DNA of 64,000 bases from a virus (IMGVR_UViG_3300009509_000010:14782-78781), one strand, 5' to 3'; positions 6,251 to 22,928 are shown, counted from the stretch's first letter. Made by a program: numbers and translations. Notes: generated by a model from the letters alone, not told the origin.

Positions 6251-7269
6251 TGCCAGTTGGAAACCTGTTCGATCAGGTCCGGGCCACCGACGAAACCGTG
6301 GCCAAGGCCCTCGGGATCTCCGAGGTGGCCCAGATTGCTCGAACAGAAACCAGGCTGAGGGAATACCTACTAGCCGAATGGAATAGCCGAGCTCGTGAGG
6401 CCGTAACCCAGGCGGCGGCGGGTGCTCGAGGAGGCGCAATCCCAAGCAAGATTTATCGGGAAGTGTCTGGAATTTTAAAGCCGTGGGGACCCGAGGTTGC
6501 CCCAAGGGTCGGGCGAGAGCTCGGAAAAATTTACCGGTTGGCCAAGGTGGCCGGATGGCGCAAGGCCACCGGGCAAACCAAGGCCCCATTGACGTATGAC
6601 ACACCCAATTTTGAACAAATGGCCAAGGCCGCACCTCGTGATGGTTTCGCGGTTTTGCCCACGTTTGACAAGCTCGACACCGACACAATTGACGCCCTAG
6701 CCAATCAACAAGTTTTTTGGCTCGCGGCCCACTACGAGGAAAACGTGGGCGCAATGATCGCCTCGACTGTCTCGGAGGTGATGGCCCAAGAGGGGAGAAA
6801 CCGTCAAGTTGCGGCGGCGGTTTTGCGGGAACGGCTAGCCGAAACCCTTGGGCAAGTGGTGACCCCGGCCGGGTGGCATGGGTCAACGCGGCAATATATG
6901 GAAGGGGTGGCCGCTAATGCTGCCACCGTTGGGCGTGCCTATGGCCAAGTGGCCGCGTTCAACGAGGCCGAGGTTATTCGCTACGAGATCGTCAACCCAA
7001 CCGACGAGCGAACATGCCCGGTTTGTTCGCACATGGATGGCAAGGTATTTTCGACCGAGCATGCAAACCGCCAAGTGGCGGCCGAGCTCGAGGCCGAAAA
7101 CCGGGAAGATATAAAGTCAATTCATCCGTGGTATACCTACGCTAAGCTAACCGATATCAGCCCCAAGGCGGGTAACGTGAGCCCCCAAGACTCCGCCGCG
7201 CTAGCCAAGGCCGGTTACCCGTTGCCACCGTTCCATTTTCGGTGCCGTTGCGCGATCGATGTGAGTTAG
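6250..7269 (+). CDS. Head morphogenesis protein (SPP1 gp7 / Mu F-like)
   Basis: DERTCPVCSHMDGK and C-terminal PPFHFRCRC motifs; follows portal. Confidence 0.88.
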   Translation: MPVGNLFDQVRATDETVAKALGISEVAQIARTETRLREYLLAEWNSRAREAVTQAAAGARGGAIPSKIYREVSGILKPWGPEVAPRVGRELGKIYRLAKVAGWRKATGQTKAPLTYDTPNFEQMAKAAPRDGFAVLPTFDKLDTDTIDALANQQVFWLAAHYEENVGAMIASTVSEVMAQEGRNRQVAAAVLRERLAETLGQVVTPAGWHGSTRQYMEGVAANAATVGRAYGQVAAFNEAEVIRYEIVNPTDERTCPVCSHMDGKVFSTEHANRQVAAELEAENREDIKSIHPWYTYAKLTDISPKAGNVSPQDSAALAKAGYPLPPFHFRCRCAIDVS

Positions 7270-7278
7270 GAGGCCACC

Positions 7279-9867
7279 ATGCAAACCTCGATTACCTCGA
7301 CTCGAAGGCGAGCCCGCCGGGCCCGCGTTGCCAAAACCATAACTACCGACGCGGTCGCCACAAGCGGCAAACTTGACGCCGCGAGTTTGCCCGGTGGTAG
7401 CGGGATCACCGAGTTGTTTGGTCTAGCCGTGACCAAAACCGCAGCGGACAAAATTTTTGCAGGTAAGGTCAAGGCGATTGCTAAAACCACCGATCACAAT
7501 TTTGCAGGCCAGTTAGTGTTGATGTTGGTCAAAGGGCAAGCGGTGGGCGAGGTGGAGTTTGGCGAGCGGCTCGACTCCAAAACGTGGGCCGTTAAAACCA
7601 CCAAGATTTTTGACCGGCCCAAGGCCACCAACGTGCCCGAGGCCGCCGAGGGTGTGGTGGGCGGGGTGCGGGTGCTCGAACGCCGCAAGGCGACATCAAT
7701 TGATGAGCCGGTAACAAAACAACGGGCTAGGGCCTACAACCCGAGCCGCGTGGTTGACCGGGTCCTTTTGTCTGACGTGCGAACCCTTGCCCAATGGGGC
7801 GAGGAGGTGGCGTTGAAAAAGGCCCTCGCCGAGGTAAAGCGCCGTGGTTTGGAGGTCGAGCGGCCCGATAAACTCGAGCTTGCCCCGGACAGTGAGATCG
7901 AAACCTTCGCCACCGTCGAGCTCGTGGCAGCTCACCAAGCGATCCATGTCAACAAGGGGTGGAGCTCCGAGGATATGGTGGGGACGCATGCCCGTATCGT
8001 GGCGGAGCTCGCCGATCGAGGCGTGCCACACCCCGAACCACCGCCGGGGTTGGATGCTCAATCGGTTGTTTTCGAGCCGGCCCGAGTGGCGGTTCTAAAA
8101 TCAGCGGCCGAGGAGGCCCTTGGGGAGATCGTGGCAGCGGTCGAGCGATACCCCGTGTTGGTCCACAAGCGGGTCGAGGGGCGGCCGGTTACGGTCAGCA
8201 AAGCCAAGGATCAGGTCAAGGTGGTGGCCGAGGACGGGGCCGATTTAACCGCCGAGGTTCCCGCGGTCGTTGAAACGATCCGAGCTCTCAAATCCGAGGC
8301 GGTGGAGCTCGAGGGGGTTCTCGAGCCATGGCATGGGGGCGAGGTTTTCCAGGTTCAAGATCTCAGCTATGACGGCCGAGACCTCCGGGATTGGCCCGTT
8401 AGCAAGCGGCTCGAGCGGCTCGCCGAGCTTGGGATCCCGCAAGCTACAAGCGCAATTCCGAGCTTGACGGCCCCCGTCAACGAGTTACCCCCGTTGGAGG
8501 CGACCACCGCCGAAACGCTCGAGCGGGCGATCCGTGTGGTCAAACGGTTGCCCGGTAGTGTTGGGGCCGTGGTCAAGCCCGCCGAGTCGGTGGACCCGGG
8601 CGAATGGTTGGAGCTCGAGGCCGAGCCCGTAACCAAGCTCGAATCAAAAGGCCCTCAAAAATTTGTATTGTGGGCAAATCAACTTTTGGTGGGCGACCGA
8701 GCGGGAAAATTGGCCGAGCGGTGGATCTTGGATTCCACCGACGTCGAGACCACCGAGCAAATCGCCAAACGGGCGGCCCCCGTTCCCAAGGATGCTTTGT
8801 CCGCCGGTGTCGGTGGGGTGACTGATCACGGTGAGGTCGAAACGGGGGCGGTCAAACCGTGGTTGCGGGAATATTTTTTGCGAGGCCAAACAACGGGCAA
8901 CCGGTTGTTGATCCGCAAGCTTACGTTTGGTGAGCTGCAAAAGGCCCAACATTCATACACCCAATGTATGGCATGCAAGGCGGCCCCCGAAATTGATGTT
9001 TTGTGGGCCGACGGGCGTGGGCGGGCGTGGTTTTGTAAGGGTTGTTATCCAAAGTGGCTCCACAAAGGGGGCGGCTCCAAAGACCTCGAGGTAATCGGTA
9101 CCAAAGCGATTATCGGCGGTCGAGCCCCAGCGAAGTATTCGGACCGTCATAATCGGGTGACAACTACCAAGGCCGCCGAGCCACACCCTCTCGGTGGTTG
9201 GCTTGTGGTGCGGGCAAAAGACCCGACGCCTTCGGTCCTTACCGGTGAGGCCGTAACCAAACGGTGGATCCCGCCGCTTGGTGTGTCAGCTTTGCCCGAG
9301 GTGGTGGCCGAGCAGGTGCCTACCGAGCTCGCCTATTGGCGGGCCCAGACATTGGCTGAGGCTCGAGAGCTCCGAGATCAGCTTGTGTCAAAGATCGACA
9401 CAAAGGAGATCGAGCTCGATTTGACCACAGTTTACACTGCCAAACCATCAAATCCGATCACCGAGGTGTCAACCAATGACACCGAGGGGACGGCGGATCT
9501 CTTTGTTCCTATTGCCAAAATTGACACCGACCGGCAAATTGTGACAGGGATTGTATTAGAGCCGGGCGAGGTTGATGCTCAAAACGACACCGTTAGCGAT
9601 GAAGTTATCGAGCGGGCCTCGATCAATTTTCTTTCCCGGTATAATTCCGAAACCCAGCTAGGTTTGATGCACAAGGCCTTTGGAGACATAGGCCTGCAAC
9701 TTGCCGCTAGTTGGGTAGCACTGACAAATCAAACGCTTGGCAAAAAGAAAGTTAAGCGGGGCTCGTGGCTGATGTCAATGAAGGTTATCGATTCGAAACT
9801 TTGGGAACGCGTCAAAAAGGGCGAGTTTACCGGATTTTCGATCGGTGGCGTGGCCAAGGTGCGTTAA
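7279..9867 (+). CDS. Multidomain head polyprotein: degenerate ATP-dependent ligase-like and LigD phosphoesterase-like regions, Zn finger, C-terminal XkdF-like prohead protease domain
   Basis: C-term IVTGIVLEPGEVDAQND...LMH...GSWLM...LWERVKKGEFTGFSIGG (XkdF type); mid HKRVEGRP..LEGVL..FQVQDLSYDGRDL..GAVVK resembles ligase motifs I/III/IIIa/IV. Confidence 0.75.
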   Translation: MQTSITSTRRRARRARVAKTITTDAVATSGKLDAASLPGGSGITELFGLAVTKTAADKIFAGKVKAIAKTTDHNFAGQLVLMLVKGQAVGEVEFGERLDSKTWAVKTTKIFDRPKATNVPEAAEGVVGGVRVLERRKATSIDEPVTKQRARAYNPSRVVDRVLLSDVRTLAQWGEEVALKKALAEVKRRGLEVERPDKLELAPDSEIETFATVELVAAHQAIHVNKGWSSEDMVGTHARIVAELADRGVPHPEPPPGLDAQSVVFEPARVAVLKSAAEEALGEIVAAVERYPVLVHKRVEGRPVTVSKAKDQVKVVAEDGADLTAEVPAVVETIRALKSEAVELEGVLEPWHGGEVFQVQDLSYDGRDLRDWPVSKRLERLAELGIPQATSAIPSLTAPVNELPPLEATTAETLERAIRVVKRLPGSVGAVVKPAESVDPGEWLELEAEPVTKLESKGPQKFVLWANQLLVGDRAGKLAERWILDSTDVETTEQIAKRAAPVPKDALSAGVGGVTDHGEVETGAVKPWLREYFLRGQTTGNRLLIRKLTFGELQKAQHSYTQCMACKAAPEIDVLWADGRGRAWFCKGCYPKWLHKGGGSKDLEVIGTKAIIGGRAPAKYSDRHNRVTTTKAAEPHPLGGWLVVRAKDPTPSVLTGEAVTKRWIPPLGVSALPEVVAEQVPTELAYWRAQTLAEARELRDQLVSKIDTKEIELDLTTVYTAKPSNPITEVSTNDTEGTADLFVPIAKIDTDRQIVTGIVLEPGEVDAQNDTVSDEVIERASINFLSRYNSETQLGLMHKAFGDIGLQLAASWVALTNQTLGKKKVKRGSWLMSMKVIDSKLWERVKKGEFTGFSIGGVAKVR

Positions 9868-10721
9868 TGGCGACAAAAGATCAACTCGCAAAGGCTCGGG
9901 AACTCTTGGATCTAGACGTCCGGGAGGTCTCGTTGGTTGACCGGCCCGCAAACTTGCGGCCGTTTTTGATTGTGAAACGTCAAACCGAGGACCACCTCGG
10001 TGAGTTTGAGATCGAGCCCTCGGTTGTCGAGTGGCTGGAAAAAGTGGCGGTGTCCCCTGGGGCCCCCACCGAGTCAATTCGGGCCTTGACGGCCGTTTTA
10101 GCAGGAGGTGAACCCGTGGACCCCAAACAAGAGACCAAAGATCAGGCTGAGGACCAAGCCGTGGATCAGAATGCCACCGCGGCCGAACCCACCGCCGAAC
10201 CCGTAACGAAAACCGAGCCGGCGGCCGAACCCGAGACCGTAACCGAGGCCGAGCCGGCGGCCGAACCCGTGGCCAAGAATGAGCCTATGGCGGAGCCAGA
10301 TCCGGACGATCAACCCATGGTGGTGATCAAGCGGGATGGTTCGATCCATGTGTCCGGACAACAGGTTCAAAAAGCCAAGACCTTTGGCAAGGCGAAAACC
10401 GCCACCTTGCAAAACGCGGTTAGTGCGTTGGCCAAGTTGCTTGGTGACGTATCCGAGGACGCACTAAAGGCGGCCATGTTGCCCTATTCGGATCCAACGA
10501 AAAAAGTGGACACCACCAAGGCCGTGGATCCGGAACAGACAAACACCGCGGATCCGATTGAGTTGATCACCAAGGCGGTGGCCTCGGCCCTCGAGCCAAT
10601 CACCAAGCGGCTCGACGAGATCGAGAAAACTCGCAATCCGTCTCAGTCCGTCGAGGGTGACGGCGGGACCGAAAGCCGACAAACCAAGGTCAACAAATCA
10701 ATTTGGGCCGGGGTGCTCTAG
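9867..10721 (+). CDS. Scaffold protein carrying the EVSLVDRPAN protease segment
   Basis: ATG 9867 overlaps upstream TAA; N-term ELLDLDVREVSLVDRPAN, acidic low-complexity middle, C-term KRLDEIEK..KSIWAGVL; precedes MCP. Confidence 0.8.
   Translation: MATKDQLAKARELLDLDVREVSLVDRPANLRPFLIVKRQTEDHLGEFEIEPSVVEWLEKVAVSPGAPTESIRALTAVLAGGEPVDPKQETKDQAEDQAVDQNATAAEPTAEPVTKTEPAAEPETVTEAEPAAEPVAKNEPMAEPDPDDQPMVVIKRDGSIHVSGQQVQKAKTFGKAKTATLQNAVSALAKLLGDVSEDALKAAMLPYSDPTKKVDTTKAVDPEQTNTADPIELITKAVASALEPITKRLDEIEKTRNPSQSVEGDGGTESRQTKVNKSIWAGVL
10180..10300 (+). repeat. Imperfect AAEP/EP(V/E)T(K/E) tandem repeats in scaffold
   Basis: gccgaaccc and gagccggcggccgaacccg units repeated; protein AAEPTAEPVTKTEPAAEPETVTEAEPAAEPVAKNEP. 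Confidence 0.75.
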
Positions 10722-10764
10722 CCGTTTTGGCAAGGCCGACCGAAACCTTTGAGGAGGAAAGATT

Positions 10765-11964
10765 ATGTCAGGTATCCCAAACGAAGAGCTGATCGCCAAA
10801 GCGGTAATCACAACCGACGCGTTGGCCGCAAATGGCAAACTCAATGATAAGCAGTCCGACATGTTCATCGATTACGTGATCGACGAGTCGGTTTTGAAAA
10901 ACAACGCCAGGGTGGTCAAGTTTCGCAACGAAAACTTGAACATTGACAAGATCGGCGTAGGTGGCCGGGTGGCCTACCCCAAAGCTGAGGCCGCGGATCC
11001 GGGCCACCGCCGAGGCGTGTCAACGAGTCAAATTCAGTTGACACCACGAGAAATCATCGTCCCGTTCGAGATCGGTGACCTGTTCAAGGAGGTATCCCTT
11101 GAGGCACCCGAGCGAATCGAGGACCACATTATCAAAATGATGGCCGCGCAACTGGCCAACGATATGGAAGAGCTCTATATCCTTGGCGATACGGTGGGGC
11201 CAGCGATCCTTGAGTCGGAATATCACGACAACGGAAGCTCGACCCAATACGTCAAGGACAGCTATTTGGCCTTGGCCGACGGGTGGAGCCGGTTGGCCGA
11301 CGGGGCCAATGTGGTGGACGCGCAAGGAGCCAACATTGGGCTGAGCATTTTCGGCCAAATGTTGCGAGCCATGCCCACCAAATTCCGACGCAACAAGCGG
11401 GCCCTCCGGTGGTTCCTGAGTCCCGACCTTTGGCAGCTCTACAGTGAAAAACTGAGCACCCGCGCCACCGCGCTCGGTGACTCCGCCGCGGGCGGGGGCG
11501 ATCATGGCCCCTATGGTGTCAGTGCGGTTGAGGTGCCTTTGTGGCCGTTGCAACCCAAGGTGGTGCAACATGTGCAATTGAACGGGACCACCGCGGTCGC
11601 GTTGCGGTTTGGGCCGATCTCTAGCGTGGTCGTTTCAACCGAGACGCTTGGAGCGACACCCGAGACCCCGTTCGTTGAAACGACCGATTATGTTCTCGAC
11701 ACAACGGCGGGCACGATTGCCAGAACCGGTGGTGGGTCGATCGGTGATGGTGATACGGTCAAAGTGACCTATGATGCCAATCCGCAAGTTTTGCTAACCC
11801 ATATGAACAATTTCATCGTGGGTATCGGTCGGGATATCAAGATCGAAAAAGACCGCAATATTTACAAGGGCGTGAACGAATACGCGATCCACGCCCGCGT
11901 TGCGGTTCAATTCGAGGAACTGACGGCGATCGTCAAAGCCAAAAACATCGGAACAGGCGTATAA
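10765..11964 (+). CDS. Major capsid protein (HK97 fold, XkdG-like) with inserted beta domain
   Basis: RBS GAGGAGG; GKLNDKQSDMFID, QLANDMEELYILGD, LLTHMNNFIVGIGRDIKIE; position after scaffold. Confidence 0.9.
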   Translation: MSGIPNEELIAKAVITTDALAANGKLNDKQSDMFIDYVIDESVLKNNARVVKFRNENLNIDKIGVGGRVAYPKAEAADPGHRRGVSTSQIQLTPREIIVPFEIGDLFKEVSLEAPERIEDHIIKMMAAQLANDMEELYILGDTVGPAILESEYHDNGSSTQYVKDSYLALADGWSRLADGANVVDAQGANIGLSIFGQMLRAMPTKFRRNKRALRWFLSPDLWQLYSEKLSTRATALGDSAAGGGDHGPYGVSAVEVPLWPLQPKVVQHVQLNGTTAVALRFGPISSVVVSTETLGATPETPFVETTDYVLDTTAGTIARTGGGSIGDGDTVKVTYDANPQVLLTHMNNFIVGIGRDIKIEKDRNIYKGVNEYAIHARVAVQFEELTAIVKAKNIGTGV

Positions 11965-12017
11965 ACGGCGGCGAATCGCGGCGGTTTTAGTCATTGCCAT
12001 TGATTGGAGGTCTCAAG

Positions 12018-12359
12018 GTGGCACGGGTTAAAGTTCAATTGCGCAACGCATCAAGTTACACCAGCATTTTTGCCAAGGACCGACCTTGGCGGCGTAACGA
12101 GGTGCGGTTTTACACCGATCCAGCTCGGATCGCGTATTACAAACAACAAGGTGAGTTTGTTTGTACCGACGTGGGTGGCGAGGCCGCGCCGGGTGGTCAA
12201 CCGGTGGCAGAGGAGCCATATCGGCACACCTACGCCAGCCTAAACCGGTTGACCAAGCCAGAGCTCGTTACCTATGCATCTATGACGCATGGTATCGAGC
12301 TTGACGATGAAGCCCGAAAAGATGACTTGATCACCGCAATTCTCGAGGCCCAAGGTTAG
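12018..12359 (+). CDS. Small protein with C-terminal HeH/Rho-N-like domain
   Basis: GGAGG then GTG at 12018; LNRLTKPELVTYA..GIELDDEARKDDLITAIL. Confidence 0.6.
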   Translation: MARVKVQLRNASSYTSIFAKDRPWRRNEVRFYTDPARIAYYKQQGEFVCTDVGGEAAPGGQPVAEEPYRHTYASLNRLTKPELVTYASMTHGIELDDEARKDDLITAILEAQG

Positions 12360-12369
12360 GAGGTAGGTC

Positions 12370-12729
12370 ATGCCATTGGTGTCAATCCCTGTTGGGATAG
12401 CGCCTTGCCAGATCGACGATTTCCCGGCGGAGATCGGGGACGGCGAGGACAAGCGGCCGTTTGAACGCTCTTGCAAGGGGGCCTTGTTTTTGCGGCCCGC
12501 GTCAACCAAGGTGCTCTCAAACGACGAGCTCGAATTTCTGCGATCCGCAAAGCAATACCGCAAGCTAGGGGCTCGGCTCTTGGTGGTTCGGGTTGACGTT
12601 GTGCCCGATACGACCAAACGGCCCACCGGTATGCGGAAAAAAATGGAGAAGGCAACGCCCCCAACGGCGGCGGTAGTAGCTCCGCCGGTGGCGTCAGATC
12701 CGGACGATTACACGGTGGATCACGGTTAA
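12370..12729 (+). CDS. Hypothetical protein
   Basis: RBS GGAGGT; 119 aa ORF in head operon. Confidence 0.55.
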   Translation: MPLVSIPVGIAPCQIDDFPAEIGDGEDKRPFERSCKGALFLRPASTKVLSNDELEFLRSAKQYRKLGARLLVVRVDVVPDTTKRPTGMRKKMEKATPPTAAVVAPPVASDPDDYTVDHG

Positions 12730-12782
12730 ACCAAGCCTATCACCGTTTTTCGTGCACCCCGTTTGGCCCCAGGTCCAAGGGA

Positions 12783-13160
12783 TTGCCCGTGCTCGAGATC
12801 CATACACGTGACGGACGAACCGAAAAAATAGACCTCGCGGATCGAGCCCAAGCCGCTGCTATTACAAGACGCTTTGCCGATCCAAGGTATCAAGCAACTA
12901 TCACAGGTTTGACGATAACCCATTTGGGGGTGCGCTATTCGATGCCCCGTCCTACGGGTTTCGAGCCGGTGGCCTACATGGCCGAGGAGGTGGAGCCAGA
13001 CCCAAGCCGCAAACTTAAAGGAGGCCGGCGGGTCGTTTGTCATGCTGGGGAGGTGCGTGCTATCGCAATGATCCACGAGGCCCAACGGGCAGTGCGGATC
13101 ACTTTGATGCGGTTTGGCAAGCAGCGTTTTGCCCCCGGTTATGACCCGTTAAGGCAGTGA
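12783..13160 (+). CDS. Hypothetical protein
   Basis: ORF fills gap in operon; start uncertain. Confidence 0.5.
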   Translation: MPVLEIHTRDGRTEKIDLADRAQAAAITRRFADPRYQATITGLTITHLGVRYSMPRPTGFEPVAYMAEEVEPDPSRKLKGGRRVVCHAGEVRAIAMIHEAQRAVRITLMRFGKQRFAPGYDPLRQ

Positions 13161-13173
13161 GTAGAGGGGGCCA

Positions 13174-13785
13174 ATGGGAACGTCTCTACAACGTCTAGAT
13201 CAGATTCACAATCCGGACGTTTACGACGATACTTTACCGAGTCCAACGATAGAGGCCTCGGAAACCGCGGCGGTTACGCTTGCGGATCATAGTAACGCGC
13301 TAATCTCCCAGCTCAAAAGGATATTGCGGGGCGACGAGCCGGGAAACTGGTTTGACGACCCAACCGAGATCGGTCCGGATTTCACCGACGCGTCGTTGGT
13401 GGCTTTGGCGGCTCGAGCTCGATCAACTTTTTTGGGGGTTTGCCCGTCAACGCTCGTGGTGAGTGATTGGGTCTATATCAGCGGCCCAAGTGTAGGTGGA
13501 AATTATCAGGTCGATAAGGTGGACATAGCAAACTTTGACAAGCTACCGGCGGTCGGTGTGATTATCGAGAAACCGACCACCACAACTTGCACAGTCCAAT
13601 GGCGTGGCGAGGTAACGGGGCTTGGGTCCTTGGTGCCTCGGCGGGTCTATTTTTTGCAGGATACGGCCAAAATTGGCTTGGCGGTGCCCGCCGAGTCGGG
13701 CCAATACGTGCAACGGATCGGGATGGCTTTAAGCTCCGAGGTGTTGCTCGTGTCAATTAACTCGCATCTAATCAAACGAGCCTAA
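13174..13785 (+). CDS. Putative head decoration/cement-like protein
   Basis: C-term GSLVPRRVYFLQ..G..P..GQYVQRIGMA domain, also seen at the end of 14240..16027. Confidence 0.55.
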   Translation: MGTSLQRLDQIHNPDVYDDTLPSPTIEASETAAVTLADHSNALISQLKRILRGDEPGNWFDDPTEIGPDFTDASLVALAARARSTFLGVCPSTLVVSDWVYISGPSVGGNYQVDKVDIANFDKLPAVGVIIEKPTTTTCTVQWRGEVTGLGSLVPRRVYFLQDTAKIGLAVPAESGQYVQRIGMALSSEVLLVSINSHLIKRA

Positions 13786-13797
13786 AGGGATCAGAAA

Positions 13798-14217
13798 ATG
13801 ACATCTTGGAACGACGAAACCGACTTTGAAAACGAAACCGCGAGTGCCGAGGAAACCAACCAAAAAACCGACGAGATCACCACCTCGGTTGAAAAAACCA
13901 CGGATCCGTTGAACGCGGTTCAAAAATTGGACCCATTCGAGCTCGAGAGGTTTTGCCGATTGGAGGCCGAGATCAAACTTTGTAACCAAGGAATGCGAAT
14001 TGTTGATTTGGAATTATTAGAAATAAAACGAGCTTTGCAAAACAAGTCAAACGAGGCCAGTCAACGACGCCGATACCTAGAAATGGAGCTAAAGGGCAAG
14101 TGGAAATTGCAATATGATGATCTACTGATGACCATCGCCGCGAAGTACGGCATTTCTGACCCTGCCCACATGTTGATCGATATCGACGTGGGCACAATCC
14201 GGGATGCCAGCGTTTAA
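13798..14217 (+). CDS. Coiled-coil hypothetical protein (possible fibre chaperone)
   Basis: Acidic N-term plus long helix; lies between two fibre-like genes. Confidence 0.5.
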   Translation: MTSWNDETDFENETASAEETNQKTDEITTSVEKTTDPLNAVQKLDPFELERFCRLEAEIKLCNQGMRIVDLELLEIKRALQNKSNEASQRRRYLEMELKGKWKLQYDDLLMTIAAKYGISDPAHMLIDIDVGTIRDASV

Positions 14218-14239
14218 GGTTGGCCCCAAGGAGTAGATC

Positions 14240-16027
14240 ATGGCTGAGCGCAAACCTTTGTTTATGCAAACCTCCGGTTTTAGCGAGGAAATGGCCACCT
14301 CCGACAGTATGCAGCTCGGGGGCCTCACAATGGGCGGTGCCATCGCAATGGGTGGCAATCAACTGTCAAACCTCGGTGCGGCCGATGCATCGGGCGAGGC
14401 GTTGGTTTACGGTCAGTCTAGCGCAAACCTTGCTGATTTGACGCTTGCGAGTAACGGCGATTTGAATCTTTCGGGTGGGGGCGAGGTGTTGGGTTTGCCC
14501 AACACCCCAAGCGGCGCCACCGCCGCAACGTCAAAGGCTTATGTTGATGGCCTTGTTTCTGGAATCGGTTGGAAAGAATCTGTTGTTACTATGGCCCTAA
14601 AGGGCAATGACACAGTTGCTAATATAAACGGGCTAAGCCCAGCCGCTGGGGATGCCTATGTTGTAACTGATTCTGGCACATTGACCGCGGGGTCACTCGC
14701 GGTTGTGGCCGGTGACATGGCGGAATATAACGGTACGGCATGGGTCAAAATCGTTTCGGCCAGTGGTGGGTTCGTGCCCGCCGGGACCCGGGCGGTTTTG
14801 GCTGAGGGGACGATACAGAGTCCCTACACCGACGCAACCGACAACGACAAAATTGTGGAGTTTTCGGGGTCGAGCAACACGGGAACGGATACCGGGGATA
14901 CTGTCAACAAAGCTTCGGTTTTGGTACAAGACGACGCCCACGTGGGTTATTGGGATAACTTGGCGTTTGTTTATGAGGGGACCGTCCCAAGCGGCACGTG
15001 GATCCAGTTTACGGGCGCCGGGGCGATCAATGCCGGTGACGGATTGGTGTATAGCGGAAATACACTTAACGTAAACCCGGGCGACGGTATCGAAATTTTG
15101 GCAGACCGTGTTGCGGTAGACATAGCGGCGGCCGGGTCCGGAACCGGTGGTTTGCAGCTCACCGGAACCACGCCCACCAAGGAGCTCGAGGTCAAAGCGG
15201 GTGACGGTATTCTGCTCGACGCAAATGGCGTTGGTGTCGACATTGCAGACACCACCCCCGGTTTACAGCTCACCGGGTCGAGTCCAAACAAGGAACTCGC
15301 GGTCCTCGCAAACACGGCGGCTGGTCTTACGGTTTCCGCTTCCGGTGTCGAGGCAAAACTCGCCACTGCGGGCGTTGGAACCGGCGGTCTCGAGTTTGAC
15401 GGTTCGGGTGATTTCCAGGTCAAGGTTAACGGTAGCCAAGGCGTGATATTAACGGCCACCGGTTTGGCGATCGAGATCGACGATACGCCAGACACCCTTG
15501 ACGTTGACGCCGATGGCCTAAAGGTTGTTGGTTTACCGTCGCTTTTCAAGGTCAACGACGTTGCCGTGGGTGCGACTGTAACGGCCGCAAACCTTGACAC
15601 CCTCACCGACGGGTCAAACGCCGATGCGCTCCACCTTCATACGGCGGCGGCGGCCACCGAGGCCCCCAAGGTCGAAAACAGTTTGACCACCGCCACCGAC
15701 ACAACGGCGAACGCTGATCCTGTGTATATCAATGGGTCGGCCACCGTAGGAAAAGCTTTGGCGAACGATGACGCCAAATCAAAAGTGATTGGTGTTATCC
15801 GAACGGGCGGCGGAGCGGCCCCCGCTTCGGTGGAGGTTGTTTCCTTGGGGATCTGTGCGGGCGTTTTGTCTGGCGCAACCCCAGGGGCCGCCTATTACTT
15901 GCAAGCTGCGGGCGGTATCGGGACAGCTCTACCGGGTGCGGGCAATCGCGTGATCCAAGTTGGTTGGGCTTACACCGCAACCGATCTTTGGATTGAGCTC
16001 AAGGACTACGGCAAAAAGGCCGCATAA
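14240..16027 (+). CDS. Putative head fibre with beta-spiral-like shaft repeats
   Basis: Gly/Ala/Thr-rich; AATSKAYVD fibre motif; repeated (A/P)GDG(L/I)xxxxxxLxV units; C-term cement-like domain. Confidence 0.65.
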   Translation: MAERKPLFMQTSGFSEEMATSDSMQLGGLTMGGAIAMGGNQLSNLGAADASGEALVYGQSSANLADLTLASNGDLNLSGGGEVLGLPNTPSGATAATSKAYVDGLVSGIGWKESVVTMALKGNDTVANINGLSPAAGDAYVVTDSGTLTAGSLAVVAGDMAEYNGTAWVKIVSASGGFVPAGTRAVLAEGTIQSPYTDATDNDKIVEFSGSSNTGTDTGDTVNKASVLVQDDAHVGYWDNLAFVYEGTVPSGTWIQFTGAGAINAGDGLVYSGNTLNVNPGDGIEILADRVAVDIAAAGSGTGGLQLTGTTPTKELEVKAGDGILLDANGVGVDIADTTPGLQLTGSSPNKELAVLANTAAGLTVSASGVEAKLATAGVGTGGLEFDGSGDFQVKVNGSQGVILTATGLAIEIDDTPDTLDVDADGLKVVGLPSLFKVNDVAVGATVTAANLDTLTDGSNADALHLHTAAAATEAPKVENSLTTATDTTANADPVYINGSATVGKALANDDAKSKVIGVIRTGGGAAPASVEVVSLGICAGVLSGATPGAAYYLQAAGGIGTALPGAGNRVIQVGWAYTATDLWIELKDYGKKAA

Positions 16028-16055
16028 AGCGGTTTGAGCCTCTTGGGGTGATACT

Positions 16056-16643
16056 GTGGATCGGGTCCAGGTTATCAAGCAAGAATCCGCCGCCCTAGGT
16101 GGTGACGGGGCCGACGAGAGGCCTTGGCCGGAACCCATAGCACCCCAAGAGGACGCGCCCGAGGTTGCTGGCGTCTATTTCCAAGACGTCAGCAACCGAG
16201 ACGAAACCACCCTAATCAGCCGCAACGGGGATGATATGACGTTTAAAGACGTCAACAACCCCACCCCAAAAACTTTGACTGAAGTGATCGCTGGTAGCGG
16301 TGCTTTAACGGAAAGTGCCCACCGTACCTTGCGCCAGCTTATTCATTTCATTGACTCGGGCCCGGCGGAGGGTTTTGCGAGCGGGGCCTACAAAGAAACG
16401 TTACCAGCGGCCGATCCGTTTCCAACAACCGTTACGTGGTGGGAGAGCTCCGGCAAAACCAAGCGAATAGTCGAAAAAACAATCACCCGCAGCGGCGGCG
16501 GAGCAACGGCGGTTACACCGACCCCGGTGGTTTGGGATATTTACGACACCGACGGAACCACCAAACTTGCCACCGTGAGCGACGCAATCACTTACAGCGG
16601 CGTTTTTGAGACGTCGAGGACTCGAACCATCACAATCTATTAG
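16056..16643 (+). CDS. Hypothetical virion protein
   Basis: Thr/Ser/Gly-rich beta protein in structural cluster. Confidence 0.55.
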   Translation: MDRVQVIKQESAALGGDGADERPWPEPIAPQEDAPEVAGVYFQDVSNRDETTLISRNGDDMTFKDVNNPTPKTLTEVIAGSGALTESAHRTLRQLIHFIDSGPAEGFASGAYKETLPAADPFPTTVTWWESSGKTKRIVEKTITRSGGGATAVTPTPVVWDIYDTDGTTKLATVSDAITYSGVFETSRTRTITIY

Positions 16644-16652
16644 GCCAAGCCA

Positions 16653-17822
16653 ATGAATGAATCCCCCGCGGTTGTGCTTTACGATCCAAGTGGTAACGCC
16701 ATGGCGGTTCAAAATGGCGTTGCGATCCCAGCCAACACCAAAGGCCTATTGTTGCACGGGCGGGACGGCTCGGGTGATGCTCGAGCGGCTGAGGTTCTAG
16801 TTGACGGCTCGATCAACCGATTGCGAACCGAGATCCCGCCAAACGTTGTTGATTCCACCAATAGCTCGACCTCGCAACTAGGGGCGAGCGGGTCGTTTGC
16901 CCCCGGGGCTGGTACCGACGTTTCCGGTTATTCATCGGTAGCGGTAACGGTCCATTCCGACGTTGATAGCGCGGCCGATGGTATGCGGTTTGAATTTTCA
17001 ATGGACAACACCAATTGGGATGACGTTTATAAATTCAACCTAGATGCGTCGAGCTCGCAAACGCGGCGGTTTCAGTTTCCCGTGTGTGCTCAATACTTTC
17101 GGGTCAACTATATCAACGGGGCCAGCGCAACGAGTCAATTTCGGGTTCAGACCATACTACACAAGGAAAATATTCTCACATCGATCCATAGGGTCGACAG
17201 TGTAGTTAAAACAGATCGATCAGCGCAAATCGTCAAAAGCGCGATCATCGCCCAACGGGAGGGGGCGGCGGTCCAAGACTTTTACCCGGTCCAAAGTGAC
17301 GTATCGGGTAACCTCAAAGTGACCACAATCGGCTCAGACATCCCGTCAAACCCGGACGCATTCGTTTTAGTGTATTGCGAAAACGGGGGTAGCTCAAACA
17401 TGTTAGTAAACGGTTCGGTTACGCCGGTAAACTTCGAAAAAGGCCCGACGGTTACAGATGAAATATGGTCGATTCGTGAGCTTTTGTTGACCTTTACGGC
17501 CGACGATTTTTCTTTTGACGGCCTAAGTTTTGGGCCCAACCCTAAAATGACCAACGGATTTGCCATTAAGGTGGTAAAAAACTCAGTGACAACTGAGGTT
17601 TTTCGAGTCAAACAAAACGAGGACTTTTTGAGGGTGCCGGGTCGGACCCCCTTGGTCAACAACACGGGCCCAAAAGATGTGTTAGGGGCCGCACTCTCGT
17701 TTCAGGGGTTGGTTCTAAATCAAGCCGATGGTGACAAGGTACAAGTTACCGTCAACGATGACCTAACCTCGGTCAAGCTTAAATATCTGACCGCCACCCT
17801 ATTTGCGGTCAAGGTGGTGTAA
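16653..17822 (+). CDS. Hypothetical virion protein (multi beta-sandwich)
   Basis: 389 aa; FEFSMDNTNWD..QYFRVNYING jelly-roll-like module; C-term domain related to next gene. Confidence 0.55.
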   Translation: MNESPAVVLYDPSGNAMAVQNGVAIPANTKGLLLHGRDGSGDARAAEVLVDGSINRLRTEIPPNVVDSTNSSTSQLGASGSFAPGAGTDVSGYSSVAVTVHSDVDSAADGMRFEFSMDNTNWDDVYKFNLDASSSQTRRFQFPVCAQYFRVNYINGASATSQFRVQTILHKENILTSIHRVDSVVKTDRSAQIVKSAIIAQREGAAVQDFYPVQSDVSGNLKVTTIGSDIPSNPDAFVLVYCENGGSSNMLVNGSVTPVNFEKGPTVTDEIWSIRELLLTFTADDFSFDGLSFGPNPKMTNGFAIKVVKNSVTTEVFRVKQNEDFLRVPGRTPLVNNTGPKDVLGAALSFQGLVLNQADGDKVQVTVNDDLTSVKLKYLTATLFAVKVV

Positions 17823-17825
17823 CCC

Positions 17826-18812
17826 ATGGGATACAAAACGACAGAGGACGGAACCCGGATCGTTGCCAGTCCCGAGTGGGTGTTTGGGCAATTGGCCCTT
17901 TCAAGAATCGACGACGGGACGGTTGCAATCAATCGGGACGGCTCACCGAGCACGCCCACGATCCTTTGGAACGGCACGGGCGGCGGTGATACCGGTGGGG
18001 ATTGGACTCGATTGGGCGTGGGGTCTGAGTCAACGGCGGCGGCGTATTCGGGGACCAACGGGCTCAACACCACGATCACGAGCCAAGACGATGAATCGAT
18101 CTTTGACAATGGGTCAATGGTCGACATTGCAGGAACCTACACCCTGTTACAGTTTTGGATCCGGGCGAAAAAATTCCCCACCGGTTCTGAGCCCTTGGTT
18201 TTTTGGCGCAACTCCTCTGATGTTCAGGTGGGTTTGCAGCTTAAATTGACCAACTACGTTCAAGAGTTTGAAGACGATTGGCAAAGGATGGCCATCCCGA
18301 TCAGTGATTTTGGGTTGGGGGCAAACGCTCAAAAACTTGTGTTCAAGTATACCGAAACCGCGGGCCAGCGGTATTTTATTGATGATATTGAGCTGTACTC
18401 GGCGGGTGGTCCTTACATTTTCCAGGCCAAAGCACCGGCCGGGGCGGTGTACCACCTCAAAGACGTGATCTTGACCTTCGCCGAGGAAAACGGGACTTGG
18501 AGCTCCTCGGGATTTTCGTCTATCAGCGGGGGCCTAAACCGTGGTTTGCTGATGCGTCAACGGGTGTTGAGCACGGGCGAGATCTCTTGGCAAATCAACC
18601 TAAAAACCAACTTGGTCATGTTTGGACGATTGAACGTGATCAATGATGTGTCCTACACCGATTCTCATCAGTTTACCTTGGCCATTGAGCCAAGCCCAGC
18701 GGTGATTAACGTGACCGATGACCAAGTGGTGGAGGCTGTTTTGCGGGACGATTTAACCGCTATAAACGCGATGCGTTCCTATATCCGTTTTGGTCGGGAG
18801 GTTGCGGCGTGA
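17826..18812 (+). CDS. Hypothetical virion protein with carbohydrate-binding-like insert
   Basis: LQFWIR...WQRMAIPISDFG...YFIDDIEL resembles CBM/galactose-binding-like modules. Confidence 0.55.
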   Translation: MGYKTTEDGTRIVASPEWVFGQLALSRIDDGTVAINRDGSPSTPTILWNGTGGGDTGGDWTRLGVGSESTAAAYSGTNGLNTTITSQDDESIFDNGSMVDIAGTYTLLQFWIRAKKFPTGSEPLVFWRNSSDVQVGLQLKLTNYVQEFEDDWQRMAIPISDFGLGANAQKLVFKYTETAGQRYFIDDIELYSAGGPYIFQAKAPAGAVYHLKDVILTFAEENGTWSSSGFSSISGGLNRGLLMRQRVLSTGEISWQINLKTNLVMFGRLNVINDVSYTDSHQFTLAIEPSPAVINVTDDQVVEAVLRDDLTAINAMRSYIRFGREVAA

Positions 18813-19549
18813 CGATTGACCTAAACAAGGTGCCACGAAACTCGGACAACAAGCCGTTTATGGTTCCCGTGATTCACCACGATCACGATAAATTCATACA
18901 TGCGGGAAGCTCCGACGATATCGCCAATGGGGTGCGGTGGGATGGTGACCTATTCGAGCTAATCCGCACCGATTCGGGTGACACGGTTGGGACGTTTCAG
19001 TTTTTGGAGTGGGTCCGAATCGCGGGCGCACACGTGACTTGCACCGGTAACGCGGTTGGTGACCATGTGCATGGCAAGGTTTATGCGCCCTCGAGTGCAT
19101 CGGCGGCGAGCTCCAACCCCGGGGCGGGTGCTTATGACAAGTACAACCTTGGGACGGGTATGAATATGTTCATACCTAACGCCACGCAAACGGGTGATTG
19201 GGATCTTGACCTTTCGAGCAGGCTAAACGCCAATTGCAATATCACCAAGGTTTGCCCGGTGACCGCAGAGGACGGGGCGGGGTTTTTTGACTATGACTCG
19301 GACACCGGAAACGTGACCCTAAACGCGTCGCAAACCGGTGGATACAACCTTTTTGATTTCGATGTGCCTCTGCTTCGAATTATCCCAAAGGCCCCCCTAC
19401 CGTTTTCGGGGTGGTGGAATTTGGCCCCTGCAAACGTGCGGCCCATGTTGCTTTTGCCCCATTGGAAACTCGAGGTGACTTTATCGCGAGCTACGAGCGG
19501 TACCGTTTCAGTCAATTGGATCTTGATCGTTGAGAGGGCCGAGACGTGA
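18809..19549 (+). CDS. Hypothetical virion protein
   Basis: GTGA overlap with upstream gene; 246 aa beta-rich. Confidence 0.55.
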   Translation: MTIDLNKVPRNSDNKPFMVPVIHHDHDKFIHAGSSDDIANGVRWDGDLFELIRTDSGDTVGTFQFLEWVRIAGAHVTCTGNAVGDHVHGKVYAPSSASAASSNPGAGAYDKYNLGTGMNMFIPNATQTGDWDLDLSSRLNANCNITKVCPVTAEDGAGFFDYDSDTGNVTLNASQTGGYNLFDFDVPLLRIIPKAPLPFSGWWNLAPANVRPMLLLPHWKLEVTLSRATSGTVSVNWILIVERAET

Positions 19550-20409
19550 CAACCGAAAAAACAGCTCTGGTCCTCTCAGGGGGTTCGCGGTTCGGGGCGT
19601 GGCAAGTTGGGGTTGCGAAGCGCCTTTACGAAAAAGGCCTCAAACCCAAGGTGTTTTGTGGGGTGTCCGTTGGTGGTCTCAATGGGGCCCACCTTGCGCA
19701 ATATGATAGCTCGGTATCAGGATTGCAGGCGGTTGATGATCTTGTTGACCGGTGGGTGAGCCTTAACACTCGGGACGTTTGGCGTCACCGTTTACCCTTT
19801 GGCCTGTTATCGGCCTTGTGGAAAAAAAGCCCCTATGATTCGAGGCCGTTGGGCCGGTTGATTCGACAATGGTTTGATCCGTTTCGGGTCCGGGCGGCCG
19901 AAAACGAGCTTTTCATCGGCACGGTGTCGTTGCGGTCCGGGCGTTACCATGTTTTTGATCTCGATCATTCTGACCTCCACGCGGTCCTCGAAGCCAGCGC
20001 AGCCAACGCCATGTTTGAACCGGTGGAGCTCGCGAGCGGCCTTTATGCCGATGGTGGTTTGGTTTGTGCCACACCCCTACGAGCTGCGTTCAATGCGGGC
20101 GCAACTCGGATCTTTGTGGTGTTGACCGAGGCAAATCAAATGCAACAAGCCGATCAGCTCGAGACCTTTTTTGACATTGGGCCGCGACATTTGGCTATTC
20201 TATCCCGTAGTGTTTTCGAACTCGATCTCGGGTGGGCGCTCGCCGAAAACCGGTTGGCCGAGCGGGGGGACGGTGACAAACGCCACGTTGAGATCAAGGT
20301 GATTCGACCTTCGGATCCGTTAGTCGGTGACCATTTAGATTTTGATCCTGTCAGGTCAAAGGAGCTGATCGGGTGTGGTTACGAGGACGCCAAAAGGGTG
20401 GTGGTGTAG
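19546..20409 (+). CDS. Patatin-like phospholipase
   Basis: ALVLSGGSRFGAWQVG oxyanion loop, GVSVG nucleophile elbow, YADGG catalytic Asp. Confidence 0.9.
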   Translation: MTTEKTALVLSGGSRFGAWQVGVAKRLYEKGLKPKVFCGVSVGGLNGAHLAQYDSSVSGLQAVDDLVDRWVSLNTRDVWRHRLPFGLLSALWKKSPYDSRPLGRLIRQWFDPFRVRAAENELFIGTVSLRSGRYHVFDLDHSDLHAVLEASAANAMFEPVELASGLYADGGLVCATPLRAAFNAGATRIFVVLTEANQMQQADQLETFFDIGPRHLAILSRSVFELDLGWALAENRLAERGDGDKRHVEIKVIRPSDPLVGDHLDFDPVRSKELIGCGYEDAKRVVV

Positions 20410-20413
20410 CTTT

Positions 20414-20770
20414 ATGGTCGATTGGGTGATCGGTGTGGTGCTCGTGGTTATTGGATTGGCCGATTGGTTTTTTGCGACCTCTCGCATACCACCCACCGCT
20501 CGACGTGTGCAGTCTTATAGCTGGCGGTTGTCGGCCATGCCGTTCGTGTTGGGGGTTACTATAGGCCGGGCTTTTGCTCCACCGTTTGGGCCATCCGAAA
20601 ACCAGCTCCTTTGGGTCGTTGGTGCGTTTGTAGGGTTAGGGGTGATGGTGATGGCTTTGCATTGGGTTTTGGTGCGGTTCGCTGACGTGCCCAATTGGTT
20701 TAGCTTAATTTACGTGCCTTGTGGGGTGTTGCCCGGAATGTTGCTTTGGCCGGTTGCGGTGGGGGTGTGA
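20414..20770 (+). CDS. Integral membrane protein (about 4 TM)
   Basis: ATG at 20414; several hydrophobic segments. Confidence 0.65.
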   Translation: MVDWVIGVVLVVIGLADWFFATSRIPPTARRVQSYSWRLSAMPFVLGVTIGRAFAPPFGPSENQLLWVVGAFVGLGVMVMALHWVLVRFADVPNWFSLIYVPCGVLPGMLLWPVAVGV

Positions 20771-20771
20771 G

Positions 20772-21086
20772 GTGGCCGAGGTTCGCGAATCGACGATCCG
20801 AGCTCTGGCGGGTACCACCGACGGGCTCAACAAGGTGTTTACCACCCCCACCGAGTTTCAAGCCGGGTCCTTTCGATTGGTTTTGAATGGCCAGCTATAC
20901 GAGCCGGCGGATCCGATTTTTGGGTGGACCGAAACTGGTACAAACCAAGTAGTGTTGACCACCGCCCCCCGGGCGGGTGACGTTTTGCAGGCGTTTTACC
21001 GCGATTATTTGGGGATTGAGGTAAGCGGGACGGGTGATGTTATCGTGGGATCGCCATTTTTCCCGGGCGAGATCCCGGGGCCGTAG
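20772..21086 (+). CDS. Small virion beta-domain protein
   Basis: GTTDGLNKVFT..LVLNGQL..VVLTTAPRAGDVLQAFY pattern common in phage structural proteins. Confidence 0.55.
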   Translation: MAEVRESTIRALAGTTDGLNKVFTTPTEFQAGSFRLVLNGQLYEPADPIFGWTETGTNQVVLTTAPRAGDVLQAFYRDYLGIEVSGTGDVIVGSPFFPGEIPGP

Positions 21087-21094
21087 GAGCCGAA

Positions 21095-21808
21095 ATGCAA
21101 GATCTGGAAATTGTCGAGGTAGTTAAAGCCGTTTGGACCGCCGCTTTTATTAACGATTTGCCTGATAAGGCCTTTGCGGTGGTGTTACCCGGTGGAAAAA
21201 AAGATGATCAGGGTAAAACGGTGCCTCGGTCGTTGCGAATGCTCCCCCACCACGGGCCAAGCGTAAAGACTCCCGTAGAAAACACCTCAGTGGACTTGCC
21301 ACACCTTCGCAACGGTTTGGCCCGTGTGAGCCAAGCTAACATGCCCGAGGACGCCAAACGCCGAGCTCTGGCACACCTTGAGGCCCACGCAAAGGAGCTT
21401 TTGACTACAAAAAAACCAGCAAAAAAAGACGTTCAAAAGGTGCGGATCCAAGTAGAAAAAACCGCGTTGCCCCTCGGTCCAAATCAAGCTTTGCGGGATT
21501 TTGCTGCGGAGTTGCGAGAGGCGGTCGAAGCGCACCTTGAAAGTGCAATCAAAATCAAGTTTGGGTCAACCGACACCAAAAGCGCATCATTTTATCCACA
21601 TGATATTTTTGGGGATCACATGATCGCCGAGGTCAACCAATGGCAGAAAGGCAAAGGGTCCACCGAAACCTATTGGCTTGTGCCATACGCTCGAGGCGTG
21701 GGTGGGTTCGTGTTTGGCCCACCGGTCGAGGTTGAAAAGCAGATCCAATGGGTCCCAAAAATGCCGATTGAAAAGCGGGCCGGCGGATTATGGTCCAACG
21801 TGCTTTGA
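21095..21808 (+). CDS. Putative internal head protein (DUF6582-like N-terminal domain) with scaffold-like C-terminus
   Basis: INDLPDKAFA..RMLPHH..DLPHLRNGLARVSQ..A.AHLEAHAKEL; ends GGLWSNVL. Confidence 0.55.
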   Translation: MQDLEIVEVVKAVWTAAFINDLPDKAFAVVLPGGKKDDQGKTVPRSLRMLPHHGPSVKTPVENTSVDLPHLRNGLARVSQANMPEDAKRRALAHLEAHAKELLTTKKPAKKDVQKVRIQVEKTALPLGPNQALRDFAAELREAVEAHLESAIKIKFGSTDTKSASFYPHDIFGDHMIAEVNQWQKGKGSTETYWLVPYARGVGGFVFGPPVEVEKQIQWVPKMPIEKRAGGLWSNVL

Positions 21809-21821
21809 GTAGGGGGCGGCT

Positions 21822-22928
21822 ATGCCATCGATTGCCAGGGGACAGGAAAACACCACCGATCGGATCAATTGGTTTATCACGGTTAATGGTGCGTTGACTG
21901 ACGTTTACGAGATCGGGTTTCGGATCCTTGATATCACAGGGGGCTTGCCAGGCACCCAAATTTTCCCCTTGGCCGGTTGGGAGGACGTGACCGCGGCTCC
22001 TGGCAATTTCAACGTGGGGTCTTATTACGCCTACGATAACACGGCGGGCAACGGGTGGACGCCAGAGCTCACAACGAACCTAGGCGATCACCGAATCGAA
22101 TGGCGTTGGAAAACGTTTGCCAGCTCGGCCTATCAATTGGGGGCCGAGGACTTCATTGTGTTGACGGAATCGGCCGGGAGCTCGACCGATACCTACATTT
22201 CAGTACAAGACATTCGAGACTTAGGGATCACGGCGGGGATGGCCGATGATACTGAGGTCCTAAACATGATCGCGGTGTGGCAAGAATTTTTGGATCGAGC
22301 ATGCCGTCAATGGTTCAACCCTCGAGCGTTAACACTCCGATTTGATGGGACCGATTCTGATACCCTTCATTTTGGCGTGCCAATTATTTCGATCGATTAT
22401 ATTCGTCTCAACAACGACGATAACAACTTGAATGCAAACTATTACAAAGTGTACAGCGGGCGCACATACCCTGATGATCGGCGCAATCCGCGGATCAAGT
22501 TGGTTCGGTCCGATGATTTTCGAGACATATACACCGCGCCTTTGTCGTGGGGTGATCTCAGGTTTCGCAAGGGTAGGCAAAACCAGATGGTCAAGGGGAC
22601 GTTTGGTTTTGTCGAGGAGGATGGCACCACGCCCAAATTGATCCAACGGGCCTTGTCAAAGCTTGTAGTTGAAAAGCTGCAAAACCCGATCTTTCATGAT
22701 TATTCAAGCGGGCCAGCTCCGGTCCCGACCCCACCGCCGATTGTAGGGCCATTGACCTCGGAAAAAACCGACGATCACGAGCGCAAATTTGGTCAAAGCG
22801 GCGGGTCGGTGGCACCCCGGCGGGCGGGGCTTGCGGGGATCACGGATGACCAAGAGGTCCTCGGAATCATCAAGCTTTACCGAGCCCCCATTGGTTTGGC
22901 AACGCCAGCGCATTGGAGCTATAAATAA
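21822..22928 (+). CDS. Head-tail connector (gp6/gp15-like) with extra N-terminal domain
   Basis: YISVQDIR..EFLDRACRQWF..GTFGF..PKLIQRA pattern; position before head closure. Confidence 0.6.
   Translation: MPSIARGQENTTDRINWFITVNGALTDVYEIGFRILDITGGLPGTQIFPLAGWEDVTAAPGNFNVGSYYAYDNTAGNGWTPELTTNLGDHRIEWRWKTFASSAYQLGAEDFIVLTESAGSSTDTYISVQDIRDLGITAGMADDTEVLNMIAVWQEFLDRACRQWFNPRALTLRFDGTDSDTLHFGVPIISIDYIRLNNDDNNLNANYYKVYSGRTYPDDRRNPRIKLVRSDDFRDIYTAPLSWGDLRFRKGRQNQMVKGTFGFVEEDGTTPKLIQRALSKLVVEKLQNPIFHDYSSGPAPVPTPPPIVGPLTSEKTDDHERKFGQSGGSVAPRRAGLAGITDDQEVLGIIKLYRAPIGLATPAHWSYK

Follow-up and report, generated by a model that had tools for sequence, protein, structure and literature searches.

How do the minor head proteins and the maturation protease of a tailed phage reach the interior of the procapsid? 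The routes are known in few model phages, and the question is raised again by the stretch of DNA analysed here (IMGVR_UViG_3300009509_000010:14782-78781; in the following the window, 64,000 nucleotides in full). The window contains the head-assembly module and belongs to a 78.8-kb IMG/VR contig from an uncultured tailed phage, the relatives of which measure 90-116 kb. Two short peptides of its head proteins occur in it a second time. A segment of the N-terminal arm of the major capsid protein (MCP) is copied near the start of an 862-amino-acid protein that carries an XkdF-type prohead protease domain (this copy is denoted N-tag), and the C-terminal tail of the scaffolding protein reappears at the end of a 237-amino-acid protein, p237. 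We tentatively favour a reading in which both peptides serve as tags for incorporation into the procapsid and are coupled to a cleavage junction that they share. The basis of this assignment was sought in related genomes. Scanning viral contigs with the MCP provided 38 related loci with MCP identities of 48-93%, and 14 larger related contigs were taken whole for analysis. In 38 of 38 loci the genes follow one another as MuF, protease, scaffold and MCP.

That p237 ends like the scaffold (VNKSIWAGVL) had been noticed in the first-pass annotation of the window, and the match proved exact. Among the ends of 554 open reading frames (ORFs) in the genome, p237 is the best match to the last seven residues of the scaffold, with a score of 22 as compared to 14 for the next best. 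The tail follows the consensus [VT]-x-K-S-[FLIM]-W-x-G-V-L-COOH, which ends all scaffolds of the family (about 35 related loci). No other part of the scaffold is as well conserved, and this holds from the present phages to the XkdF of Bacillus PBSX-like phages, across very different hosts. Its Trp and Gly are invariant, located 3-5 residues after a lysine, and the tail is strictly C-terminal. A search with the strict pattern [LIFM]W..[VI][LIV]-stop found 15 cases where 0.58 were expected (4778 ORFs, seven genomes), i.e. an enrichment of about 25-fold. Besides the scaffold, at least three further unrelated domains have the tail at their end, namely the p237C family, a BRX-like family (87-110 amino acids; Pfam BRX, 28.5 bits) and a Zn-ribbon protein. 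The three tail-bearing families are mutually non-homologous, and the p237C-domain family is found with the tail in nearly every related genome. In a large protein database, 24 of about 30 p237C-domain proteins end in the tail.

The arrangement of domains in front of the tail is variable. INDLPD, p237C and BRX-like modules are found singly as well as in fusions of varied order, and the scaffold-like tail always comes last. This holds for INDLPD-p237C (the window protein), p237C-INDLPD, p237C-BRX and BRX-p237C; in one of the module-shuffling examples of Table 1 (G004) the tail is shortened to K-K-T-L-W-G-stop. The AlphaFold2 (AF2) model of p237 comprises two domains with a predicted local distance difference test score (pLDDT) above 90, followed by a floppy end in which the last ~25 residues score 51-64. 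The C-terminal domain folds into a helix and a curved sheet with no clear relative, and a Foldseek search with the p237 model returned only weak NTF2/cystatin/VirB8-like matches (E >= 0.03). A related-locus search with p237 alone found nothing; the homologues came from the related contigs and the protein-database search. The INDLPD domain, which has no Pfam family of its own, is widely fused to prohead proteases of the HK97 family (PF04586, S78) or the XkdF type (PF14550) in other phages and prophages, and these fusions place p237 in head maturation.

Outside the family, the protease-scaffold XkdF of the PBSX-like Bacillus phage PBP180 ends T-K-P-I-W-D-G-L-L, and the tail is thus old. Among seven cultured relatives, i.e. 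BoomerJR (Streptomyces), SIO-2 (Vibrio), DLP5 (Stenotrophomonas), RHph_I4 (Rhizobium), C2 (Clostridium), FBPa45 (Pseudomonas) and PBP180, the tail stands at the very end in PBP180 only, with a degenerate near-end form in C2 and FBPa45; in none of the seven does an accessory protein carry the tail or the protease an N-arm copy. A second scaffold motif should be mentioned here. E-V-S-L-V-D-R-P-A-N (residues 20-29, window 9924-9953) is kept at the N-terminus of every scaffold in the family. The XkdF of PBP180 and of Clostridium C2 also has it, there preceding the protease domain within a single polypeptide. A possible role of the motif is to hold scaffold and protease together in trans.

The second peptide was surveyed in the N-termini of the protease ORFs from the 38 loci. 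The first-pass annotation had described the start of the 862-residue protein as resembling the MCP N-terminus; its coordinates and sequences are exact, with the correction that the N-tag begins at residue 17, after a 16-residue Arg-rich leader. About 15 of about 26 distinct related XkdF-type proteases carry the tag, always near the N-terminus and in the same order: a basic leader, the arm-like motif, and then P-G-(G)-S-G-I with an acidic (Gly/acidic) linker. The arm-like motif reads K-x-(V/I)-(T/S)-(S/T)-x-x-L-(A/G)-x-(S/A/G)-G-K-x-x-P-x-(S/Q) and aligns with K-A-V-I-T-T-D-A-L-A-x-x-G-K-L-N-P-x-Q of the MCP, about 9.5 of 21 positions being identical in every lineage. In the AF2 prediction for the MCP orthologue of one related locus (L007), the equivalent residues form the second half of the first N-arm helix (pLDDT 72-84) and the G-K-L-N-P turn.

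A profile hidden Markov model (HMM) built from 14 protease tags only finds every MCP N-arm among 11,311 six-frame ORFs (E 7e-8 to 4e-3), including those in genomes whose protease is untagged. Only protease proteins and MCPs are found in this search, and the next unrelated match among the 11,311 ORFs has an E value of 0.57. Conversely, with an MCP-only profile the 862-residue protein is the first non-MCP match (E 0.0075). Because the tag-only model retrieves the arms so cleanly, the resemblance of the tag to the MCP arm is considered real and conserved. The tag is confined to the protease protein and hence is no general cargo tag.

The origin of the likeness was considered at the DNA level. In the window clade (window 7327-7377 against 10792-10848; L002), identical residues share the codon in 8 of 11 and in 8 of 9 cases, about four being expected. 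Copying at the DNA level, or gene conversion, is hinted at by this excess. Over all lineages the excess is not significant (67 shared codons against 58.3 expected, z = 1.7), and most lineages are without it. Gene conversion was rejected as a general origin, the excess of synonymous codons being found in the window clade only.

The 862-residue protein itself starts 5 nucleotides downstream of a GGAGG, and its orthologues in L002 and L003 measure 851 residues. Its protease domain (residues 745-860) matches PF14550 with E 1.2e-25 and 90.4 bits, as compared to a cut-off of 24, and the protein matches phrog_3017, "head maturation protease", with E 8.7e-29. Residues 44-744 (window 7408-9510), a stretch of about 700 residues, have no family match; the sole weak one is to Arr-ms (E 0.0055, residues 142-201). 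In tagged relatives, the stretch between tag and protease is mostly a short linker, with ~250-400 residues in a few cases and ~700 here, and several relatives without detectable tag have protease ORFs from 786 to more than 1300 residues. The stop codon of the protease gene and the start codon of the scaffold gene overlap as TAATG (9865-9869), in different frames, and the relation of the two reading frames varies between loci. Fusion of protease and scaffold by frameshift or read-through was rejected, since the G-F-S-I-G-G motif would be lost by slippage at the sole A-rich site. Not being fused to the scaffold, the protease needs its own route into the prohead.

Table 1. Coordinates of the head genes, the two peptides and the module-shuffling examples (window positions unless a related sequence is named)
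Feature	Coordinates	Strand	Remarks
Large terminase candidate	3033-4499		Assigned from position alone
Portal	4499-6250		
MuF-like minor head protein	6250-7269		
862-residue protease-bearing protein	7279..9867	+	Leader, MCP N-arm copy, ~700 residues without family match, C-terminal XkdF-type protease
Basic, Arg-rich N-terminal leader, M1-K19	7279..7335	+	Ends V-A-K; motif in relatives R-R-A-(I/F/M)-P-x-S-E-(R/K)
N-tag, V17-D33, VAKTITTDAVATSGKLD	7327..7377	+	MCP N-arm copy
P-G-G-S-G-I motif after the tag	7390..7407	+	Conserved in protease proteins, absent from MCP
XkdF-type (Peptidase_S78_2) prohead protease domain	9511..9858	+	PF14550
Scaffolding protein, 284 residues	9867..10721	+	phrog_3017 over the C-terminal part; conserved gene order
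Scaffold C-tail, VNKSIWAGVL	10689..10718	+	Conserved in the family
MCP, XkdG-type, HK97 fold	10765..11964	+	phrog_1623, E 4.4e-68
MCP N-arm segment, I10-D28, IAKAVITTDALAANGKLND	10792..10848	+	Source of the N-tag likeness
Mostly unassigned genes	~9 kb between capsid and head-tail adaptor genes		
p237 (237-residue ORF)	21095..21808	+	INDLPD domain, p237C domain, flexible scaffold-like C-tail
C-terminal tail of p237, IEKRAGGLWSNVL	21767..21805	+	
Head-tail adaptor	21822-22928		
Module-shuffling examples	G005 92370-93056 (L061); G008 35261-36007 (L088); G004 85051-85653 (L073); window 21095-21808		

The two peptides have one element in common. The N-tag, the MCP arm and the tails all open with [VIT]-x-K-small-hydrophobic; the lysine, at position -8 or the equivalent position, is present in 53 of 64 distinct tails, 13 of 14 tags and 28 of 28 MCPs. 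Judged from this recurrence, the [VIT]-x-K junction is probably the cut site of the protease. The main rival to a tagging function follows directly from here: the shared peptides could be no more than sites at which the XkdF-type protease recognises and cuts its substrates, located in the MCP N-terminus, in the enzyme's own leader and directly ahead of the last seven residues of scaffold and small proteins, so that the likeness would reflect an extended P' side specificity instead of docking. The junction common to all three modules is what such a model predicts, and a precedent exists in phage 80alpha, where one N-terminal motif, cut by Prp, is common to capsid protein, scaffold and L27 (PMC5744158). 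Still, the likeness between tag and arm extends about 17 residues beyond the junction, through G-K-L-N-P, and thereby far exceeds the usual footprint of protease subsites. Moreover, a strictly C-terminal tail with invariant Trp and Gly suits a docking hook better than a substrate, and the junction in the MCP lies in a predicted helix. Cleavage without docking is regarded as a possible account, and an unlikely one.

Returning to the favoured reading, in which the peptides are incorporation tags, the following sequence of events can be envisaged. The scaffold tail would act as a hydrophobic hook that, in the procapsid, docks on the capsid protein's inner face, and p237, the BRX-like and the Zn-ribbon proteins, each ending in the scaffold hook on a flexible linker, would be carried into the procapsid by the same contact. 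The N-arm copy of the protease would be recognised like the arm of a capsid subunit, by whatever binds that arm during assembly. This binder would most plausibly be the C-terminal region of the scaffold, in which case the protease and the ~700 residues fused to it would ride in with the scaffold. Cutting at [VIT]-x-K would then clip the hook, i.e. the last seven residues, from scaffold and cargo and release them, as at the herpesvirus M-site, and the protease leader would be trimmed as well. The starting points of this scheme (the motifs, their conservation and positions, the modularity and the folds) are observed. A more far-reaching version treats the two peptides as a reciprocal system derived from both faces of one interface: hook-ended proteins bind the coat as the scaffold does, the arm-tagged protease binds scaffold hooks as a coat subunit does, a single [VIT]-x-K cut releases all of them, and domains such as the 700-residue insert, INDLPD, p237C and the BRX-like module are shuffled or inserted behind the tags. 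This version we hold to be rather unlikely in its entirety.

Several points weigh against the favoured reading. Binding partners, loading and cleavage are inferred, and the cut-site interpretation of [VIT]-x-K explains part of the similarity equally well. A putative cut at the MCP lysine would fall inside a helix predicted by AF2, which is unusual for a cleavage site. Considering the window alone, the match between tag and arm is the best local alignment of the two proteins (score 47, 11 identities) but not significant, as 367 of 2000 shuffled MCPs score as high; the case for the N-tag thus rests on the relatives. About 40% of the related proteases are without N-tag and keep the R-R-A-I-P-x-S-E-R leader, so the tag cannot be the sole route for the protease. 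The first-pass annotation had proposed an addressing system in which two mimic tags load accessory proteins into the prohead. What stands of it is that both peptides are conserved, position-specific modules across the family and that the tail is reused on unrelated proteins. For the N-tag half, the term addressing system is an overstatement, since one protein only carries the arm copy.

Neither structure prediction nor co-variation lent support. In L007 a natural read-through allowed a single chain to be modelled by AF2, with an alignment built from six natural read-through rows. The chain runs from the scaffold C-terminus (140 residues) through the TAA, taken as Gly, and 22 linker residues into the MCP; tail and linker remained unplaced (pLDDT < 50), and the model is uninformative as to docking. 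Co-variation of each tag with its cognate MCP or scaffold had been proposed beforehand as a check, and was not borne out: neither the N-tag and its MCP (p = 0.14) nor cargo tail and scaffold tail (p = 0.25) co-vary significantly, and the same is true for the Phe before Trp and the terminal Ile. The comparison of tag and MCP is uninformative, because the MCP arm is too conserved.

The undocked tail on the MCP monomer in the AF2 model would be compatible with a different kind of signal in the tail, for instance for co-assembly with the scaffold core (tail-tail or tail-scaffold), for portal binding, or for turnover by a C-terminal-specific protease or PDZ protein of the host. A hydrophobic C-terminus with a free carboxylate is a classical ligand of PDZ domains and tail-specific proteases, which counts in favour of the last variant. 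The conservation of the tail across very different hosts argues for a phage-internal partner instead, and in all systems studied scaffold C-termini bind the coat (PMC5644958), which makes this alternative improbable.

For the N-tag, the restriction to the N-terminus of the protease protein could point to an autoinhibitory propeptide, a pseudo-substrate that blocks the active site as long as the enzyme has not entered the prohead; it would have no targeting role, and the C-tail would be a separate matter. In the short forms of the protein, with an acidic or Gly-rich linker of 20-30 residues, the peptide could fold back in this manner. The ~700 residues between tag and protease in the window protein speak against such a fold-back, as does the fraction of about 40% tagless proteases in which the leader is kept, and a propeptide is judged decidedly improbable. 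Chance matches, or a functionless relic of an old duplication, would fit the non-significant window-only score of the N-tag and the codon matches of the window clade (8/11 and 8/9), yet both motifs are kept at the protein level down to 48% MCP identity in loci that are no near-identical copies of one genome, the profiles cross-detect cleanly, the tail is enriched about 25-fold and the codon excess is absent in most lineages, so that this explanation is disfavoured as highly improbable.

The wider setting agrees with a head-assembly module of the XkdF/XkdG type. In tblastn searches with the MCP, the matching MCPs annotated as XkdG have ~30% identity. MCPs of cultured phages (Streptomyces, Vibrio, Bacillus PBSX-like and others) reach at most ~35% in partial matches and stay below 30% over the full length. 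The AF2 model of the L007 MCP orthologue resembles the capsid proteins of T5/DT57C, SPO1, P22 and P4 (E 3e-9 to 1e-7), in line with an HK97 fold. A sequence search of the PDB with MCP and scaffold found no relatives, and a search of the literature on the XkdF/XkdG mechanism found nothing relevant. Three further proteins of this region were recorded. Directly after the MCP, a small protein (window 11994-12359) has a C-terminal Rho_N/SAP-like helix-hairpin (PF07498, E 2.9e-4, below the cut-off). In the block between capsid and adaptor genes, a 389-residue protein (window 16653-17822) gives weak discoidin/F5-F8 type C matches (E 4e-4, below the cut-off), and a patatin-like phospholipase (window 19546-20409; PF01734, E 8.7e-24) has neither tag.

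If the favoured reading is true, the scaffold-coat contact has been put to a second use in these phages, with each of its two sides serving as an address label. The tail would then be a minimal peptide, seven residues long, with which foreign proteins could be brought into HK97-fold shells, and unannotated phage genes for packaged and possibly injected proteins would become easier to predict. In its reciprocal form, the system would represent a natural plug-in loading of proteins into the head. The presence of the tail in the PBSX-type XkdF of Bacillus makes its basic role approachable in a tractable system.

Among known systems, the interaction of scaffold and coat in phage 80alpha, with its copy on SaPI1 CpmB, and the capsid targeting sequence of T4 come closest. 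In 80alpha, the C-terminal helix-and-hook of the scaffold (RIIK) binds the N-arm helix and a hydrophobic cleft of the coat protein (Dearborn et al. 2017, PMC5644958; Dokland 2019, PMC6893505), and CpmB of the pirate element SaPI1 copies the scaffold motif and binds the same coat site (PMC5644958, PMC6893505). As the 80alpha hook contacts the coat arm and CpmB is a copy of the hook, copies of both sides of the interface are a reasonable reading of the present locus. Both cases feature a short, conserved C-terminal scaffold motif that is also present on an unrelated protein. The motifs differ (W-x-G-V-L here, RIIK there), and in the sequence search of the PDB no homology to the 80alpha scaffold was found. 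Furthermore, the copies described here reside on accessory families of the phage itself, whereas CpmB is a size-determination protein of the pirate element. The coat-side copy on the protease has no counterpart in 80alpha.

In T4, the capsid targeting sequence (CTS) of the internal proteins IPI-III and Alt is removed by the gp21 protease (PMC9958956, PMC9026906), and DarB of P1 has an N-terminal targeting region (PMC9024508). Like the CTS, the N-terminal module here is a short peptide that precedes a likely protease site, on a protein that has to enter the prohead. Unlike the N-tag, which is found on the protease protein only, the CTS is spread over many cargo proteins, and no copying of the capsid protein is known for it. 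Moreover, the copied part of the N-tag lies after the putative cut, and the tag that is shared by multiple proteins here is the C-terminal one. With regard to shared N-termini, capsid protein and scaffold of 80alpha and the ribosomal protein L27 have a common motif that is cut by Prp (Kizziah et al. 2017, PMC5744158). In both systems the MCP and another head protein share N-terminal sequence, in 80alpha by way of one protease. There, the shared part is the removed leader and the enzyme is that of the host, whereas here it comprises ~17 residues after the putative cut.

Nested protease and scaffold genes with a common C-terminus are found in herpesviruses (UL26/UL26.5, with the M-site) and in phage lambda (C/Nu3). 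The likeness lies in a coat-binding scaffold C-terminus that brings in another protein, there the protease, and in a cut upstream of the tail that releases the scaffold. In contrast, the protease described here is without the scaffold C-terminus, the two genes are separate with a TAATG overlap, and the tail is found on unlinked genes. The cargo-loading peptides of encapsulins are short C-terminal peptides that dock cargo, via a flexible linker, inside an HK97-fold shell. The locus differs from these in the presence of portal, MuF, terminase candidate, protease, scaffold and head-tail adaptor, and in that the peptide is the tail of the scaffold itself. The present locus unites features of these systems and differs from them in that the putative tags stem from scaffold tail and coat arm of the phage itself, with the tail distributed over several unlinked families and the arm copied onto the protease.

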